A DNA stretch of 64,000 nucleotides. Source: an uncultured Gammaproteobacteria bacterium (GTDB lineage Bacteria; Patescibacteriota; Patescibacteriia; Magasanikbacterales; JBBTQS01). Shown one piece after another: positions 5,447-59,571 of this stretch. The stretch lies in assembly GCA_964627525.1 (NCBI GenBank), contig CAZVIA010000003.1:21367-85366 (forward strand), read 5' to 3'. The translations under genes and the position numbers were made by a program. The stretch's first letter is position 1. Each line of letters opens with the position of its first letter. The notes below the pieces were generated by a model that worked only from the letters and a program-made list of their open reading frames with translations, did no database searches and was not told the origin of the DNA.

Positions 5447-5475
5447 TTGACAAAAGTGCCTAAATATGATATAAT
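5447..5475 (+). promoter_or_regulatory. perfect consensus sigma70 promoter, TTGACA-17 bp-TATAAT
   Basis: TTGACA at 5447-5452, a 17-nt spacer, and TATAAT at 5470-5475. The SD AAAGGGAGA lies 5 nt upstream of the ATG at 5536. Confidence 0.7.
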
Positions 5476-5535
5476 ACTATCAATTCGTGTGCTGACTTTG
5501 GCATTGTCAGCCACAACAAAGAAAGGGAGACAGAC

Positions 5536-5946
5536 ATGGAAGGGTTTTTTTACAATCAGTTGGCAGAAGGTTTGTTGCTGGGTATTTTCTCGGGAATCCT
5601 AGTCTTCGTTATCTGCTTCGGCAGAAAGGTGGGGATCGACTGGGCGTATGAGGAGATCAAAGGCAAGCTCGTAGTCGCAGCGTTCACGATGTTCGCGGCG
5701 GGATTCCTCATGATGCAGAGTTACCATGTGGGGCAGATGAACGAGTTCTACTATCTTGCCTACACGCACAACGACGTCTGGACAACTAACGTCCCGATTG
5801 TGGCGCCGTGGGGTTACTTGCTCGGAATGCTGGTGACAACCACTGCAGTGTCGATCGTGGGGGTTAGTTTCTTGAGTCTTGTCGAGTGGTGGTACGCTCG
5901 GCAGGTTCGCATGTCACCGCGCAACGGCAACGGCGGCACGGCGTAG
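5536..5946 (+). CDS. GC-rich (about 55-60%) small integral membrane protein, function unknown
   Basis: Clean ORF with 3-4 TM helices. GC content and codon usage differ sharply from its neighbours. It has its own promoter, SD and terminator. Confidence 0.6.
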   Translation: MEGFFYNQLAEGLLLGIFSGILVFVICFGRKVGIDWAYEEIKGKLVVAAFTMFAAGFLMMQSYHVGQMNEFYYLAYTHNDVWTTNVPIVAPWGYLLGMLVTTTAVSIVGVSFLSLVEWWYARQVRMSPRNGNGGTA

Positions 5947-5987
5947 ACTCCGACAGTCGCGCGCCGTCCTCAATAAGCCACAACACC

Positions 5988-6040
5988 GCGCCCCAGTAAG
6001 ATCGTCACAGGTCTTGCATCTGGGGCGTTCTTTTTTATTT
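5988..6040 (+). terminator. rho-independent terminator
   Basis: An 8-bp GC stem (CGCCCCAG/CTGGGGCG) followed by TTCTTTTTTATTT. Confidence 0.6.
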
Positions 6041-6307
6041 AAAATAAATATCTTTTCTGTGTTTAATTATAAGAATTGTCAACAAAATTAATTGACCATT
6101 TGAATTTTTTTTAAAAATTGCACGATAGTTTCCAATTCTAAATCTGTACAAGCCTTTAAAATAACCAACTAAAGGTTTGGTATGTTTGAGTGGGTTTTTA
6201 TCCTCACAAAAAAATTTAATTTTACTAATTATTTTTTGAGCTTCTTGTTTTTCAATTTTTTGTAAATCTTTTATAGCCTTTTGTGTGTACAAAATTTTAT
6301 ATTTCAT
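6035..6307 (-). CDS. relE: RelE/ParE-family type II toxin
   Basis: 90 aa with a YRFRIGNYRAIF...IIKHRKDIY motif typical of RelE/StbE. Overlaps the upstream antitoxin by 4 bp. Confidence 0.7.
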   Translation of the reverse strand: MKYKILYTQKAIKDLQKIEKQEAQKIISKIKFFCEDKNPLKHTKPLVGYFKGLYRFRIGNYRAIFKKNSNGQLILLTILIIKHRKDIYFK

Positions 6308-6555
6308 ACAACCCCAAGCATATTTTCAACTTCTTTTTGTGTGAGTAAGCGTTTATTTTTTACATCATCAAGAGCTTCATCAACATCCTTAATTAAGTTT
6401 TCAAGAATAGACTCTTTTTTTGAAAGGGGATGTAACTCAAAAATTGGTTGATTTTTTTTCAAAATAATTAGTTTTTGATTTTTGATTTGAGCTTGTGAAG
6501 AAATTTTAGCCATATTTTGACGGAATTCTTTTAAGCCAACAAAGCGGGTAGTCAT
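6304..6555 (-). CDS. Phd/YefM-family antitoxin
   Basis: 83 aa, Phd/YefM-like N-terminus, located immediately upstream of the relE-like gene with an ATGA overlap. Confidence 0.6.
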   Translation of the reverse strand: MTTRFVGLKEFRQNMAKISSQAQIKNQKLIILKKNQPIFELHPLSKKESILENLIKDVDEALDDVKNKRLLTQKEVENMLGVV

Positions 6556-10133: not shown

Positions 10134-10631
10134 ATGCGAATTCCTTCTAGAAAACCAGGTAAATATTCTAATCTTTCTCCAGATCCAAATATTACTCAGC
10201 AGAAAAAACTAGAATTAGAAACCAATCTTGCTCAGCTTAAAAAGAAAAAACCTCATGCAGCAAAAGAGGTTCAGCGTTTGGCGGAATTGGGTGATTTTTC
10301 AGAAAATGCTGAATATCAACTTGCCAAAGGACGTTTGCGAGGAATTAACCGTCGTATTCTTGAGATTGAAGATCATCTTAAGCGCGCCATTGTGATTTCA
10401 GTGCAGAAAAATATTAATGAGGTGCAATTAGGTGATACTGTTACAATTAAAATAGATGATCAGAAAAAAACTTATACTATTTTAGGTCCAACAGAAACCA
10501 ATCCTGCAAAAAGTATTATTTCTCATCTTTCGCCAATTGGCAGTGCGCTTATTGGTAAAAAACCCAATGACACTTTTCCAATTACTGTTGCTGGAAAAAC
10601 AAAACAGTGTACAATTATTTCAAAACATTAG
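10134..10631 (+). CDS. greA: transcription elongation factor GreA
   Basis: GDFSENAEY acidic finger motif and a C-terminal ISHLSPIGSALIGK FKBP-like motif. Confidence 0.8.
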   Translation: MRIPSRKPGKYSNLSPDPNITQQKKLELETNLAQLKKKKPHAAKEVQRLAELGDFSENAEYQLAKGRLRGINRRILEIEDHLKRAIVISVQKNINEVQLGDTVTIKIDDQKKTYTILGPTETNPAKSIISHLSPIGSALIGKKPNDTFPITVAGKTKQCTIISKH

Positions 10632-12016
10632 CTACGACTTCTTCGACTTGTTCCACTTCTGTTTCGACCACCACTTCGGCCACCGCCACTGCGACGACTT
10701 GCACCGCTTCTGCGACCAGCACTTCTTCGTGTTGCACCACTGCGTTTTCGTTTTTCGCCCGAACTATTATCACCACTGCGACCTGAATTTCCACCAGAAC
10801 CACGACGTGATTTGTTTCGCGAATTAAAATGTGATCTATTTGATCTGTGAGATTGTTTTTCTTGTGGAGGTTTTGGTCTTTCTGGAGAAAGTGTTGGAAG
10901 TGCCAAAACAGGAAGTGACTTACGAATAAGTCGCTCAATTTTTTTAACATCAGCTTTTTGAGACGGTGTAACAAAAGAAATTGCTTTTCCGTAGCGCCCT
11001 ACACGCCCAGTTCTTCCGATACGATGAACATAATCTTCTGAATTATCAGGTAAGTCAAAGTTGATCACCAAAGAAATATGTTTAACATCAATACCTCTAG
11101 CAGCAATATCAGTTGCAACAAGTACTCTGTATTTGCGTTTTGCAAAACCATTAAGAGCTAGTTCACGTTGTTTTTGAGAACGGTTTGAATGAATTTCTGT
11201 TGCAGTATGACCTATGTAACGAATGTCACGAGCAATACGTTTTGCGCCATGTTTAGTTCTTGAAAAAATAAGCACAGTGTCTTCTTTGTATTGTTCCAAA
11301 AGAGAATCAAGTAATCGCATTTTGTCATTTTTTCTAATAACAAAAATCTCTTGCACTACATTTTCTGGCAAAGTTCCTTGAGGTGCAATTTCAATACGCA
11401 ATGGAATTTTCATAAATTCACTTGCCAAAGATGAAATTGATTTTGGCATAGTAGCTGAAAACAACATTGTCTGTCGTTCTTTTGGAGCAGATTTTAAGAT
11501 CTGTTTAATTTGAGGTAAAAATCCAACATCAAGCATTCGATCTGCTTCATCAAGAGTAATAACGCTTGTGTTTTTAAGTGAATATAATTTTTGATCCATT
11601 AAATCAGCTAAACGTCCAGGAGTAGCAATAACAATATGAGGGTTTTGTCTTAAAGATTTTACTTGAGGTCTTTGAGAAACTCCTCCAATAATTACCGTGG
11701 TGCGAAGTCCGATTGGGCCACCAATTTGTTTAAGTGATTTTTCAACTTGTAAAGCAAGTTCTCTAGTAGGAACTACAACCAGTCCCTGTCCTTTATCAAG
11801 TGCAATGCGTTGAATCATTGGAATACCAAAAGCCAGTGTTTTTCCAGTACCAGTTTGCGCAACACCAACAACATCCTTACCTTTTATAGCAGCAGGAATG
11901 ATTTGGTTTTGGATTGGCATTGGGGAATTAAACCCGTTTTTTGTAAGAATAGTTAATATTTTTGTAGCTATTCCTAGGTCACTAAATTGACCTGCCTTTT
12001 GATTATTTTTATTCAT
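10628..12016 (-). CDS. DEAD-box ATP-dependent RNA helicase with an RG/RS-rich C-terminal tail
   Basis: Q motif, AQTGTGKT, PTRELA, DEAD, SAT and HRIGRTGR motifs. The C-terminal tail is a low-complexity arginine-glycine repeat. Confidence 0.85.
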   Translation of the reverse strand: MNKNNQKAGQFSDLGIATKILTILTKNGFNSPMPIQNQIIPAAIKGKDVVGVAQTGTGKTLAFGIPMIQRIALDKGQGLVVVPTRELALQVEKSLKQIGGPIGLRTTVIIGGVSQRPQVKSLRQNPHIVIATPGRLADLMDQKLYSLKNTSVITLDEADRMLDVGFLPQIKQILKSAPKERQTMLFSATMPKSISSLASEFMKIPLRIEIAPQGTLPENVVQEIFVIRKNDKMRLLDSLLEQYKEDTVLIFSRTKHGAKRIARDIRYIGHTATEIHSNRSQKQRELALNGFAKRKYRVLVATDIAARGIDVKHISLVINFDLPDNSEDYVHRIGRTGRVGRYGKAISFVTPSQKADVKKIERLIRKSLPVLALPTLSPERPKPPQEKQSHRSNRSHFNSRNKSRRGSGGNSGRSGDNSSGEKRKRSGATRRSAGRRSGASRRSGGGRSGGRNRSGTSRRSRS

Positions 12017-40674: not shown

Positions 40675-40703
40675 CTTGACAAAATCTTTAATTTGTGCTA
40701 TAC
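40675..40703 (+). promoter_or_regulatory. near-consensus sigma70 promoter, TTGACA-17-TATACT
   Basis: TTGACA at 40675-40680 and TATACT at 40698-40703. No ORF follows. Confidence 0.5.
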
Positions 40704-40709
40704 TAGTTT

Positions 40710-40902
40710 AGTCAATCAGGTGAAAGCCTTTATTGCTTGACCATGTTGGGTCAGGTGGGCAGAGATACGAAACCAGTCAAATGGGAGTAGGGTTTGGCCA
40801 CGGCATCAAAGGTGGAAAGCTGATTGTACTTTCCCGCTAGTTACAGGTCTGAAAACCTGGGCGGAAGAGGCGGTCTGAACATCGGATCGCCTATTTTTTT
40901 TT
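40710..40902 (+). ncRNA. candidate small RNA of about 190 nt, class unknown, with its own promoter and intrinsic terminator
   Basis: GC-richer than the flanks. Ends in an 8-bp stem (AGGCGGTC/GATCGCCT) plus T9 at 40868-40902. No ORF with an SD. Confidence 0.4.
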
Positions 40903-40914
40903 ATAAATTTTTAA

Positions 40915-41265
40915 TTTAAATAAAAAAGAAGGGGTTCCGTGGGAAAACCCCTTCTTTAATGCCTACTAGCTTTTCGTAGTGATAGTGATGGCATGCAGAG
41001 CTTCGTGTTACAGAAGGTCCTCACATCTACAAAAAGACTAGCTCAGCTAGGTTAGTAAGGGCTTGCTGCAGTATGACCAATGTATTTACTACACTTTCTC
41101 ACCCAAAGATAGGGTGCTCGCGGGATTCGAACCCGGGCTGCAGGGCTGATCAGGCCAACACCCAATCTCTTCCTCCGTTAATCGTCGCGCGGTTTCCAGT
41201 GGCAGACTGATGATAAGATAGCATGTTGGGTTTGGGTGTGCAAGAGGTGTGGGTTTTCAAGAAAT
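40915..41265 (-). ncRNA. candidate structured RNA on the minus strand containing a tRNA-like T-arm (GGTTCGAATCC); possible tmRNA-like or other RNA
   Basis: GC-rich in an AT-rich genome. The minus strand reads ...CCCGGGTTCGAATCCCGCGAGCACC... A perfect 11-bp hairpin (AAGAAGGGGTT/AACCCCTTCTT at 40926-40956) followed by a T-run on the minus strand acts as its terminator. Confidence 0.35.
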
Positions 41266-41317
41266 AGTTTTTTATAGTAAGATGCAGAAGGAGTTAAACT
41301 TGGGGAGGGTGTTTCAG

Positions 41318-41545
41318 ATGACGAGGTATTTTTTGGTTTCTTTGGCAATGGTGCTGATTGGTCTTGGGTCTGTTGTTGTAGATCGATTCTATGGTGTTTC
41401 ACCTTTTCCAAGTGGAGCACTGGCTGGTGGCGGTGTTGCTTTGGTTTTGGTTGGGTTTTGCAGTGCGGCGGCAATACTAAAGATGGTGGTAGCTCGTGAT
41501 CGTGACGCCCGTACAAATCGTGTAAATGAGGAAACACGGACTTGA
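41318..41545 (+). CDS. GC-rich small two-TM membrane protein of about 75 aa
   Basis: GGAGGGTG SD followed by the ATG at 41318. It encodes MTRYFLVSLAMVLIGLG... GC is about 50%. Confidence 0.4.
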   Translation: MTRYFLVSLAMVLIGLGSVVVDRFYGVSPFPSGALAGGGVALVLVGFCSAAAILKMVVARDRDARTNRVNEETRT

Positions 41546-41659
41546 ACCTATGCATAACAGCATAAACAAACTCCATGTTGGCGTCCTTGAGAGGGGAGGG
41601 TCAGTATGGAGTTTTGTGATTATTTGGGGCGGTGGTGTTTTGGTCAATTAATTAAAAAA

Positions 41660-41980
41660 TTAGTCCCACAATGTCCCGTCCAGCCCTAAAACAATACCTA
41701 ACCAAAGTGCGACGATAAAAGCTAATGCGCTAAATAAAAAAACCAAAAAAATTGTTAATTTCTTTTTGGGGCGAATAAAGTTTTTAAGATAAAAAGATAA
41801 AATACCCAATGCTCCAGCTAGGGGTGTAATAATTAAAGGTCTGATTTTCCAGAGTTTTCCCCAATTTGGATCTGGTTCATCAACTGAAAATACAAGAAGA
41901 GAAATAATAATCAAACCTATTACTGCGCCTAGGAGCATTCTTTTAAGTAGTGATTTTGGGCTTGGGGGTTGTGGGGTCAT
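41660..41980 (-). CDS. small membrane protein of 106 aa
   Basis: Three predicted TM helices. Confidence 0.45.
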   Translation of the reverse strand: MTPQPPSPKSLLKRMLLGAVIGLIIISLLVFSVDEPDPNWGKLWKIRPLIITPLAGALGILSFYLKNFIRPKKKLTIFLVFLFSALAFIVALWLGIVLGLDGTLWD

Positions 41981-54577: not shown

Positions 54578-54958
54578 ATGTTAAAAAAAGTTTTATTAGT
54601 AGAAGATGACGCTTTTCTCATTAGATTTTATAAAGCAAAATTAGAGCAAAAGAAATTTCAAACAGTTTCTGTTGAAGATGGTGGTCTTGCAAATCAAACA
54701 GCAAAAGAAGAACAACCAGATGTAATTGTTTTGGATGTGATGTTGCCAAATAAAAATGGTTTTGAAATTTTGAAAGATCTTAAAAAAGATTCTGCAACTG
54801 AGAAAATTCCTGTTATTGTTTTTACAAAATTATCACAAGAGTCAGACAAAAAAGAGTTAACAAGATTGGGTTGCCAAGCTTACATGGTTAAAACCGAACA
54901 CAAATTAGATGATTTGATTCTTGAAATTGAAAAAATAACAATGGGTGGCAAAGCCTAA
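54578..54958 (+). CDS. single-domain response regulator (CheY-like receiver)
   Basis: LLVEDD, VIVLDVMLP and a conserved K; a full receiver. Confidence 0.8.
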   Translation: MLKKVLLVEDDAFLIRFYKAKLEQKKFQTVSVEDGGLANQTAKEEQPDVIVLDVMLPNKNGFEILKDLKKDSATEKIPVIVFTKLSQESDKKELTRLGCQAYMVKTEHKLDDLILEIEKITMGGKA

Positions 54959-54959
54959 A

Positions 54960-55420
54960 AAAATAAAAAAAGAGCCAGACATTACGGAGTGTTATGCTTC
55001 TACGTTTTGTCTGGCCCCTCTCCAGGGGAGTTGTGTGTTTTGCCTAGATCAAGAGCTTGTCATTGCCCTAACTGTTCACAGTGTCTCTTTCTTTTGCTTT
55101 TCAGACAATTCTACCGAGGTAGAAGGGGAGGGAAAAACCAAGGTAGTTTGCCTCAGGCTGGGAGGAGAAACTTGTTGGTAAACAGCAGCTCTTGCAGGCA
55201 CTCTAGACTAACACATTGTCCTGCGAGGAGCACGCGCCGTCGGCGTACTAGAATATTTCAGTGTCGTTGCAGGGGAGCTAGACACCTTGACACTCTTCAA
55301 TCCCTTTATCCGTTCTTACAGGACTAGATACGCGCGCACACTTCCCCAGCACACACGCATCCACACTTTGGAGCAACATAGTGTGCAGGGACAATTTGCA
55401 AGAAAATTATAAATCTTTTT
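54960..55420. other. GC-rich (above 50%) non-coding island of about 460 bp; candidate large structured RNA or a decayed foreign gene
   Basis: No credible ORF (no SD, junk-like composition) and several strong local hairpins (GCCAGACA...TGTCTGGC; CCCCT-ctcc-AGGGG; ACGCC-gtc-GGCGT). Confidence 0.3.
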
Positions 55421-55483
55421 GAAAGTGTTGTCAAGTCCTAGTTGTGTATAGTATTATATATATAGTAATTAAGAAAAAAATTC

Positions 55484-56134
55484 ATGCGTCACAAAAATAA
55501 ACTAGCCTTACAATGGCTTGGTTTTATCATTATTTTAGTCGTTATTTTTGGCGGCTTAATTTGGTTGGGCCAACCCAAAGATCAAGGAGAAGCAAATTTT
55601 AAGGTAGCCGAAGTAACCGAAGATGAGCATATTAAAGGAGATCCAGATGCTGAAATTACAATTATTGAATATAGTTGTTTTGAGTGTCCTGCTTGTTCAC
55701 GTTTTTATTCAGTTTCAAAAACTATTCTCCAAGAAAATCCAAATGTTAGATTGGTGTACAGAAGTTTTCCGTTAAAAAATACACACATGAATGCATTGCT
55801 TTCTGCTCAAGCAGCTGAAGCAGCATCATTGCAAGGAAAGTTTTGGGAAATGTATGATAAGCTTTTTGAAAACCAAGTTGTTTGGTCAAAAAATTCTAAT
55901 GCTCAAAATGTTTTTATAAAATTTGCTGAAGAATTAGAGCTTGATGTGGAAAAGTTTTCACAAGATTTAAATTCAAAAGAAATAGTAAAAAAGGTTGATC
56001 AAAGTTATCGCGATGCAGTGCGATCAAATATTGAATCAACACCTTCTATTTTCTTAAACAATAAAAAAATTAACACACCAGGTAGTTATGCAGCTTTTAA
56101 TGAAATGCTGGAACAATCTTTGGAACAGAAATAA
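55484..56134 (+). CDS. DsbA-family thiol:disulfide oxidoreductase, membrane-anchored
   Basis: N-terminal TM helix and a CFECPAC thioredoxin-fold active site. Confidence 0.75.
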   Translation: MRHKNKLALQWLGFIIILVVIFGGLIWLGQPKDQGEANFKVAEVTEDEHIKGDPDAEITIIEYSCFECPACSRFYSVSKTILQENPNVRLVYRSFPLKNTHMNALLSAQAAEAASLQGKFWEMYDKLFENQVVWSKNSNAQNVFIKFAEELELDVEKFSQDLNSKEIVKKVDQSYRDAVRSNIESTPSIFLNNKKINTPGSYAAFNEMLEQSLEQK

Positions 56135-57795: not shown

Positions 57796-59571
57796 ATGAC
57801 AGACACATCACAAATTAAAGAAAGAATAGATGTTGTAGATTTTTTGTCTGAATATCTTCAGCTAAAACAGGCAGGTGCAAATTGGAAAGGCAACTGTCCT
57901 TTTCATAATGAAAAAACCCCATCATTTATGGTGAGTCGCGAAAAGCAGATGTGGCATTGTTTTGGTTGTGGTAAGGGTGGTGATATTTTTGAGTTTTTAA
58001 TGGAAATGGAAGGAATGGAATTTGTTGAAGCTCTTAAGGTTTTGGCAGAGCGCGCTGGTATTGAGATTAGTTTTTCTGGTGGTGGTTCAGGAGTTTCAGC
58101 AGATAAAAAAACTCGGTTGCGTGAAATTAATTCTTTGGCTACGAAGTTTTTTCAAAAAGTTTTAAAAGAATCTTCAGCTTCAGTTGAGGCGCGGACATAT
58201 TTGGAAAATCGCGGAGTGTCACAAGAAATGATTGAACAATTTCAAGTTGGTTTTATTCCAGAATTAAGTTGGACAGTTTTGACGGATTTTTTGGTGAAGA
58301 AAAAAGGTTTTGGGATTGAAGAGTGTTATGAAGCTGGCACAACAAAACGTTCACAGCAGGGGAGGTATTTTGATTCATTTCGTGGGCGTGTGATGTTTCC
58401 GATTTTTGATGTGCATAATTCTGTTGTTGGTTTTACTGGTCGTTTGTTAAAAGAAAAAGAAGGTGTTGGAAAATATATTAACACTCCGGAAACTCCTTTG
58501 TTTGATAAAAGTCGTTTAGTGTATGGTTTGAATTTTGCAAAACAAGAAGCAAAGCAAAAAGGTTATTTGGTTGTGGCTGAAGGTCAGTTGGATGTAATTT
58601 CTGCACATCAAATTGGTATGACAAATGTTGTGGCTGCATCTGGAACTGCTTTAACTCAACATCATATTCAAATTTTAAAAAGATATGTCCCGCAAATTCG
58701 TGTGGCATTTGATTCTGATTCAGCAGGGGAGCGTGCGGCAAAAAGAGGAATTGATTTGGCTTTAGAAGCTGGGTTGGATGTAAAAGTAATTACAATTCCT
58801 CCAGATGCTGGTGATGATCCAGATGATTGTATTCAAAAAAATCCACAAGTGTGGCGCGATGCAGTTGAAAATGCTGAACCTGTTTTTGATTATTATATAA
58901 ATAGGTATGTTACTTCAGAAGTTCGTGGCAATTCACAAAAATTAAAACAAGTAAGTGATTTGTTAGCAGATGAATTGTCTCGTGTTGGTGATCCAGTTGT
59001 TGCAGATTTTTGGGCGCAAAAAATTAGTGGAGCTTTGGGTACAAGTGTTGAAAGTGTAAAAAATAAAGCTGTGCAAATGTCTGCACAAAAAAATAAATAT
59101 TCTCGTCAAGATAGTGGTGCGCCAAATGGTGCGCCGTCAGAAGTTTTTCAGGAGAAAAAAGTTTTATCAAGAGCTGAAAAATTATCACAATATATAATGT
59201 GTATTTTTGTGAAAATGCCTGAATTAACAAAAGAATGTGCTGTGGATCCATTGCAATTGGCGAGTGAACAAGATCGTTTGCTTTACAGTTTTTTAACAAA
59301 TGATTATAATGAACAACATGGAGATAGTTCTATCTCGTCTTATAAAGAGGTAATTGAACTTCTCGCTTCAGAGAAGTTATTTGGTTTTTCTGAAAAGGAA
59401 ATCAAGCAAGAGTTACAAACCGCGATCGCCGAACTTGCCAAGTTATGGCAAAAGCAACAGCAACAAGTTTTGCTGTTTGAAATTAAACAGGCGGAGGAAC
59501 GTGGAGACAATACTCTTGCAGCAGAATTAACTCAAAAATATCACGAGCTGACCAAAGGTAATTATGCCTAA
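57796..59571 (+). CDS. dnaG: DNA primase
   Basis: [11 protein letters not shown] zinc ribbon and TOPRIM ([17 protein letters not shown]). Confidence 0.9.

Follow-up and report, generated by a model that had tools for sequence, protein, structure and literature searches.

A candidate orphan structured RNA gene in a GC-rich intergenic island of a Patescibacteria genome

The intergenic island and its surroundings

The island lies between a response-regulator gene (54578–54958, plus strand), whose single-domain product matches the Pfam family Response_reg, and a DsbA-like gene (55484–56134, plus strand) that has a VKOR gene next downstream. It is GC-rich and poor in open reading frames. The GC content is 0.466 over positions 54960–55420, 0.495 over 54975–55400 and 0.485–0.53 in 200-nt windows, against a mean of 0.344 (sd 0.041) for the window, by which we mean the whole 64-kb stretch of DNA that was analysed. 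An equal GC content is reached by just 1% of the 461-nt windows, so that the island falls into the top 1%. Gene coordinates and the GC scan thus confirm the GC-rich island between a response regulator and a dsbA-like gene that was described in an earlier note on this DNA, whereas the figure of above 50% GC given there is correct for the core only and not for 54960–55420 as a whole. Two of the stems listed in that note, GCCAGACA (54974) with TGTCTGGC (55008) and CCCCT (55015) with AGGGG (55024), are found in the sequence as given; the third, described as ACGCC/GGCGT, exists in the form ACGCGCCG/TCGGCGT at approximately 55233–55247, the literal ACGCC being absent. Elsewhere in the window, a GC content of up to 0.495 is reached at 10630–10830, just past a plus-strand open reading frame ending at approximately 10630, and here the minus strand may encode an Arg/Ser/Gly-rich low-complexity tail.

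The 551-nt island region is 100% identical across five aligned contigs, and nhmmer recovered the full 440 nt at each of the six loci fetched, which come from five independent assemblies (JGI 3300009405 and 3300009375, ENA ERZ23499057, and Logan SRR8062331 and SRR9166041). Identity in six loci of five independent assemblies confirms that the island is a real genomic feature and neither an assembly artefact nor a chimera. The flanking proteins assign the DNA to the Patescibacteria (CPR), and the best RpoD relatives, at 67–68% identity, belong to 'Candidatus Falkowbacteria' and similar MAGs. None of the 13 gene starts between 49350 and 59564 is preceded by a recognisable Shine-Dalgarno sequence, the upstream regions being merely A/T-rich, and the host appears to initiate translation without Shine-Dalgarno pairing. 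The observation, also made in the earlier note, that no open reading frame of the island has a Shine-Dalgarno sequence is therefore true and at the same time uninformative.

Transcription signals, predicted fold and other GC-rich units

A sigma-70 promoter is found on the minus strand at 55406–55434, where TTGACA (55434–55429) and TATAAT (55411–55406) are separated by a 17-nt spacer and match the consensus at 12 of 12 positions. Perfect sites of the type TTGACA-N16-18-TATAAT occur twice in the 64 kb, compared with 0.08 expected from shuffled sequences. On the same strand an intrinsic terminator spans 54958–55016 and consists of the hairpin GGCCAGACA...UGUCUGGCU (55016–54973) followed by UCUUUUUUUAUUUUUU. 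The hairpin has a folding energy of −16.6 kcal/mol (z −3.83), with none of 200 shuffles equally stable, and the U7AU6 tract that follows it adjoins the stop codon of the response-regulator gene. When read on the plus strand, the hairpin is trailed by CCCCTCTCC; the U-tract is thus present on the minus strand only and, since no T-tract follows the hairpin on the plus strand, termination is expected for minus-strand transcription only. Directly before the terminator is a small hairpin, CCCCU-GGAG-AGGGG (55015–55028, minus strand; −8.4 kcal/mol), which is formed in 95% of the ensemble.

The promoter and terminator positions delimit a predicted primary transcript of approximately 435 nt (54962–55399, minus strand), with the start placed about 7 nt past the −10 hexamer and the 3′ end within the U-tract. 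The island therefore has the general layout of an ncRNA gene, with a predicted promoter and an intrinsic terminator on one strand, approximately 435 nt apart, and noncoding sequence between them. A consensus scan also returned a weak internal terminator-like hairpin with three G-C pairs followed by U5 (55138–55156, minus strand), at which a predicted shorter isoform of approximately 265 nt could end. On the plus strand, the likely promoter of dsbA-vkor, TTGTCA-18-TATTAT, is located at 55428–55457 and matches the consensus at 10 of 12 positions. Its −35 hexamer TTGTCA and the −35 hexamer TTGACA of the minus-strand promoter occupy the same 7 bp (55428–55434), which from the coordinates form the palindromic-like site TTGTCAA, so that competition for RNA polymerase between these promoters is possible.

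Including the terminator, the minus strand folds with a minimum free energy (MFE) of −144.6 kcal/mol and a z-score of −2.98, compared with −1.50 for the plus strand. With the terminator left out, the z-score of the minus strand is −2.21 and the centroid (−118.9) remains close to the MFE (−119.7), whereas the plus strand gives a z-score of −0.40 and a diffuse ensemble, with a centroid of −53 against an MFE of −111. For a GC-rich protein-coding stretch of the window, taken as a control, the z-score was −0.04. GC-rich sequence folds well regardless, and the z-scores of the whole RNA are moderate, 2–4 of 100 shuffles folding equally well; those of its individual hairpins range from −2.9 to −5.0.

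The predicted fold features two domains. In the 5′ domain (RNA nt 6–186; 55215–55395, minus strand), on which the MFE and centroid structures agree, a closing helix surrounds five hairpins, among them a 15-bp G-U/G-C-rich hairpin at 55325–55365 (−20.4 kcal/mol, z −5.0) and another at 55250–55300 (z −2.9). The 3′ domain (nt 187–367; 55034–55214, minus strand), seen in both the MFE and the centroid, is built from long-range helices enclosing approximately 100 nt, namely GUGUU.AGUCUAGA/UCUAGGC..AACAC and CAAGAGCUGCUGUUUAC/GUGAACAG...AGCUCUUG. Four segments of the minus-strand RNA are predicted to be exposed. The C-rich hairpin loop UCCCCU (nt 125–130; 55271–55276) is unpaired with a probability of approximately 1.0, the C/U-rich 16-nt loop UUUUCCCUCCCCUUCU (nt 265–280; 55121–55136) with a probability of 0.8–1.0 and the 13-nt G-rich bulge UAGGGCAAUGACA (nt 331–343; 55058–55070) with a probability of 0.9–1.0, and the G-rich loop UGGGGAAGU (nt 53–61; 55340–55348) is accessible in the ensemble according to the partition function. 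Read from the sequence, the latter loop is complementary to the C-rich loops (GGGGA/UCCCC), and the bulge UAGGGCAAUGACA can, as judged by complementarity, form an alternative long-range helix with the 5′ end AUUG[U]CCCU (nt 6–14; 55387–55395). The motif CUCCCCU occurs three times in the RNA (nt 124, 271 and 371), the loop UCCCCU being part of the first copy, and UCUAG occurs five times; over all k-mers these repeats are insignificant, with P(max count) of 0.10 for CUCCCCU and 0.22 for UCUAG.

Further GC-rich units are present in the window. The unit at 40676–40901 (plus strand) has the promoter TTGACA-17-TATACT with an upstream TG (11 of 12 positions) and ends in an 11-bp terminator followed by T9. 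The 190-nt RNA that it would encode (40711–40900) folds with −74.6 kcal/mol and a z-score of −5.05, with none of 200 shuffles equally stable; no Rfam match was found at E≤1 and no gene lies downstream on that strand, and the unit looks like a strongly structured orphan sRNA. Next to it, a GC-rich stretch on the minus strand covers approximately 40925–41250, possibly extending up to 41611, with a 14-bp terminator at its end (40957–40925) and a promoter matching 10 of 12 positions at 41647–41619. It contains a tRNA-like piece with the T-arm GGGUUCGAAUCCC at 41134–41112 and a 7-bp acceptor-like pairing GGGUGUU/AGCACCC; no D-arm or tag ORF was found, nor was there an ARAGORN or Rfam call, and a tRNA-like minihelix, a degenerate tmRNA or tRNA, and an att remnant are candidates for its identity. 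Antisense to the possible long minus-strand transcript is a GC-rich, membrane-like open reading frame of 98 codons (41249–41545, plus strand) with a moderate period-3 power of 3.3. The only other perfect TTGACA-N17-TATAAT promoter of the window belongs to the unit at 5447–6035 (plus strand), where it drives a foreign-looking gene (5536–5946) for a 136-residue membrane-like protein with GC of up to 0.615 and GC3 of 0.73. This gene has a GGGAG Shine-Dalgarno sequence, unlike the native genes, and a terminator downstream; it has no Pfam, phage or plasmid match and adjoins what by eye is a RelE/ParE-like toxin-antitoxin pair (6035–6555, minus strand).

Homologue searches and alternative readings

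The lineage is a near-singleton in the databases, where DsbA and the response regulator each form a cluster with a single member, and exact-protein look-ups returned only contigs that are 100% identical. In the closest DsbA relative (66% identity, on the 2.3-kb contig L007) the upstream region is different and the island is missing, as it is from three other DsbA-VKOR loci of Patescibacteria (L165, L191 and L192), which have short upstream spacers. Homologues of the response regulator show at most 48% identity and are found in other gene contexts. The closest GTDB relatives, identified by an RpoD scan (67–68% identity), keep the order hyp138-DnaG-RpoD; they gave no nhmmer match and no GC peak, and contain no DsbA, response regulator or island. 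A blastn search against phages, plasmids and E. coli returned nothing relevant. In IMG/VR a pattern of three motifs gave 74 chance matches only and three 17–18-mers gave none, and one 17-mer gave 25 chance matches in JGI metagenomes, in a collection that does not include the source contig itself. The collection scans demanded exact matches of 17–21 bases, so that diverged homologues could be missed. A single-sequence covariance model of the 5′ domain (R1) matched only itself in 421 kb of Patescibacteria DNA. In L007, the GC content switches from approximately 0.30 in DsbA-VKOR to 0.55–0.60 upstream (1–830), where a gene fragment resembles by eye a uroporphyrinogen decarboxylase or related methyltransferase; the switch suggests a chimeric assembly or a horizontal transfer at the same junction as the island.

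Lineage specificity and absence from the syntenic site in relatives are also what would be seen if the island were a remnant of horizontally acquired GC-richer DNA, either a dead gene or a noncoding fragment, with a strong promoter and no function. We consider this rather unlikely. Consistent with such an origin, plus-strand frame +1 is the most gene-like frame of the island, with just three stops, all TAA, and a faintly gene-like GC1>GC2 pattern, and a clearly foreign-looking gene is what the second perfect promoter of the window drives. On the other hand, the period-3 power of the island is only 1.93, compared with 7.0–8.1 for three real genes; Pfam gave nothing below the cut-off for the island ORFs; and frame +1 had no match at E≤10 among 5.8 billion protein clusters. 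Searching 1.84 billion representatives by HMMER with the longest open piece of this frame (66 residues) returned four weak matches, to a phage repeat, a zinc-finger, an LRR and one unchecked protein, which were judged to be spurious, repeat-protein noise. The large protein databases were searched with frame +1 only, the other five frames being covered through Pfam on their ORFs. The lack of a match in phages, plasmids, E. coli or IMG/VR likewise argues against acquired DNA, as do the absence of flanking direct or inverted (terminal) repeats and of a tRNA-derived att copy, the 3′ end of the nearby tRNA-Ser having no second copy. Moreover, a random remnant is not expected to have promoter, terminator and better fold all on the minus strand. 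The island also shows no similarity to the other GC-rich islands of the window. The suggestion of the earlier note that this might be a dead foreign gene is left without support by the low period-3 power and by the lack of a Pfam match and of any meaningful protein-database match.

Quite improbable, in our judgement, is a role as an antisense or insulator element in cis, whereby the convergent minus-strand transcript and the shared −35 site would limit read-through and tune dsbA expression. The overlap of the two −35 hexamers fits this reading. The plus-strand hairpin is followed by no T-tract, which leaves the response-regulator gene with no terminator on its own strand, and read-through into dsbA-vkor may occur, to which the RNA would be fully complementary. 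However, approximately 435 nt of GC-rich, well-folding sequence far exceed what such a role needs, and in relatives the region upstream of dsbA-vkor is short and AT-rich and contains no element of this kind.

The island is unlikely to be protein-coding. According to a six-frame stop map, no frame of the promoter strand is open beyond approximately 40 codons, and there is no UGA-only stop pattern suggesting recoding. We give only a slim chance to the reading that the RNA encodes a small protein, as an mRNA or with a dual function, through a 33-codon ORF that begins at the AUG at 55379 (MLLQSVDACVLGKCARVSSPVRTDKGIEECQGV). This ORF starts approximately 20 nt past the predicted transcription start and, since the native genes have no Shine-Dalgarno sequences, the absence of one before it is uninformative. 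It nevertheless spans less than a quarter of the transcript, has no Pfam match and no period-3 signal, and was not called as a gene in any of the source assemblies; whereas native start regions are A/T-rich and unstructured, the sequence upstream of it is neither.

The RNase P RNA, tmRNA, large ornate RNA and intron proposed in the earlier note were not borne out, as Rfam 15 gave no credible match to the island even at E≤10. At the gathering threshold, the 4227 families matched only three tRNAs in the whole window, and at E≤10 queries of 801 nt and 413 nt (the core) returned only eukaryotic lncRNA and miRNA noise. Its more general proposal of a structured RNA instead of a protein gene is supported by signals that it does not mention, namely the minus-strand sigma-70 promoter, the intrinsic terminator and the strand-specific folding, and the novel large ncRNA that it suggests is a possibility. 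The families rejected because no Rfam match was obtained at the gathering threshold or at E≤10 include OLE, GOLLD, ROOL, HEARO, raiA, 6S and SRP. For tmRNA, ARAGORN made no call at the default or 80% threshold and only implausible permuted calls at 60%, there was no Rfam match and a T-arm motif of the GGUUCGAAUCC type is absent from the RNA; no credible tRNA was found in the island by ARAGORN at lowered thresholds either. Group I and II introns, self-cleaving ribozymes and riboswitches gave no Rfam match. A riboswitch requires a regulated gene downstream on the same strand, and an intron an interrupted host gene; on the minus strand, nothing but the convergent response-regulator gene is found past the terminator. 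In RNase P RNA, the near-universal core consists of CR-I GGAAAGUCC and CR-V ACAGAA..GGCUUA, which form P4 and are preceded by P1–P3. By eye, CR-I GGAAAGUCC and the GGCUUA of CR-V are absent from the RNA, and RF00010, RF00011, RF00373 and their relatives gave no match at the gathering threshold or at E≤10. CPR genomes are known to have atypical RNase P RNA and rRNA operons (PMC8172020), the RNase P RNA being diverged and in some genomes missed by the standard models; among 35 circular CPR genomes, 10 yielded RNase P RNA only after the RF00010 thresholds had been lowered (Lui et al. 2021, PMC8172020). That the island encodes a housekeeping RNA which has diverged strongly, with RNase P RNA as the most plausible candidate, is very unlikely, a slimmer chance still than that of the small protein: length and strong promoter fit, and the possible long-range helix AUUG[U]CCCU/AGGGCAAU, with its bulged U and a preceding ACAG, is by eye superficially P4-like, but with just 5 nt between the predicted start and its 5′ strand there is no room for P1–P3, and absence from this locus in relatives, with no detectable conservation, is unlike an essential RNA.

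Proposed mode of action and comparison with known systems

Because promoter, terminator, composition and the better of the two folds converge on the minus strand, an ncRNA is the best reading of the island, which we consider to be probably a self-contained gene for a structured RNA of approximately 435 nt, predicted to be transcribed antiparallel to both neighbours. Lineage-restricted orphan ncRNA candidates are common, and it is credible that this is one such gene, belonging to no Rfam 15 family. RNA polymerase would start at the perfect sigma-70 promoter (55434–55406), and transcription would end at the hairpin and U-tract abutting the response-regulator stop codon. The RNA would then fold into the two multi-helix domains, leaving exposed the C-rich loops UCCCCU and UUUUCCCUCCCCUUCU and the G-rich segments UGGGGAAGU and UAGGGCAAUGACA, and may act through these loops as an abundant, stable, lineage-specific structured RNA. 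Two modes of action can be envisaged. Kissing between the G-rich and C-rich loops could lock the RNA into a compact tertiary structure to which a partner binds; alternatively, as in RNAIII or RsaE, the C-rich loops could base-pair with other RNAs at G-rich sites.

Within the 64-kb window, no trans target with complementarity of more than 12 nt was found. Sites of the sequence AGGGGAG outside the island are few in the 64 kb and lie mostly inside coding sequence; they are not at start codons, with the exception of one dubious 27-codon ORF. At 41592 (within 41585–41690), AGGGGAGGG precedes a 27-codon ORF and is among the few sites of the window complementary to CUCCCCU. The lack of Shine-Dalgarno use in this genome removes the usual target of C-rich sRNA loops. 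An exact 15-nt match to nt 97–111 of the RNA is located inside dnaG (58312–58326, plus strand; E = 0.02); since it has the polarity of the dnaG mRNA, it does not qualify as an antisense target, and it is probably due to chance.

In our view the RNA is more likely to have arisen recently, as a regulator or scaffold, than to be an old housekeeping RNA. A recent, lineage-specific origin is indicated by the absence of the island from the same locus in all relatives examined, although a young, possibly neutral insertion would give the same absence. Patescibacteria have tiny genomes with little spare DNA, and a noncoding gene of 435 nt behind a perfect promoter is for this reason unlikely to be idle. 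More tentatively, and as a possibility to which we give less weight than to the gene itself, the island might be the founding member of an undescribed class of large (approximately 435 nt), two-domain RNAs in a sparsely sampled Patescibacteria lineage, which would act by loop kissing as an abundant RNP scaffold or regulator. If so, the island would form, together with the units at 40711–40900 and approximately 40925–41250, an ncRNA set of this lineage that current family libraries fail to detect. The literature searched yielded no account of such an RNA for CPR and, if expressed and conserved, it would be a new large RNA for a phylum whose RNA biology is almost uncharted. The island is at present a well-delimited candidate rather than a discovery, and its value lies in the precise coordinates, strand and predicted ends that can be given for it.

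Several known systems resemble the island RNA in part. RNase P RNA, including the diverged CPR forms, has in common with it the size, GC enrichment, strong promoter and a possible long-range helix with a bulged U, whereas the conserved core, P1–P3 and a covariance-model match at a permissive threshold are all lacking in the island. What defines the large ornate RNA classes is their wide conservation and covariation, together with typical contexts such as prophages, OAP genes and IscB. The island RNA is similar to OLE, GOLLD, ROOL, HEARO and raiA in its several hundred nucleotides, multi-domain organisation, many helices and possible loop-loop contacts, and differs from them in having no Rfam match, no wide conservation and none of their typical contexts. 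Staphylococcal RNAIII, with 514 nt, is similar in size to the island RNA. Like RNAIII and RsaE/RoxS, the latter would be transcribed independently in an AT-rich genome and would present C-rich motifs of the UCCC type in accessible loops. There is, however, no sequence similarity to these RNAs and no target with extended complementarity in the window, and whereas the loops of RNAIII and RsaE target G-rich Shine-Dalgarno regions, the genome of the island is one without them. A further parallel is the search for ncRNA candidates in GC-rich intergenic regions (Stav et al. 2019, PMC6429828; Brewer et al. 2021, PMC8632094; Narunsky et al. 2024, PMC11109978). In these studies motifs were accepted only after covariation among homologues, whereas the island is an unnamed candidate with no homologue in the data searched; what it shares with their candidates is the enrichment signature on which the pipelines are based, a long intergenic region with a GC content far above that of its AT-rich genome.
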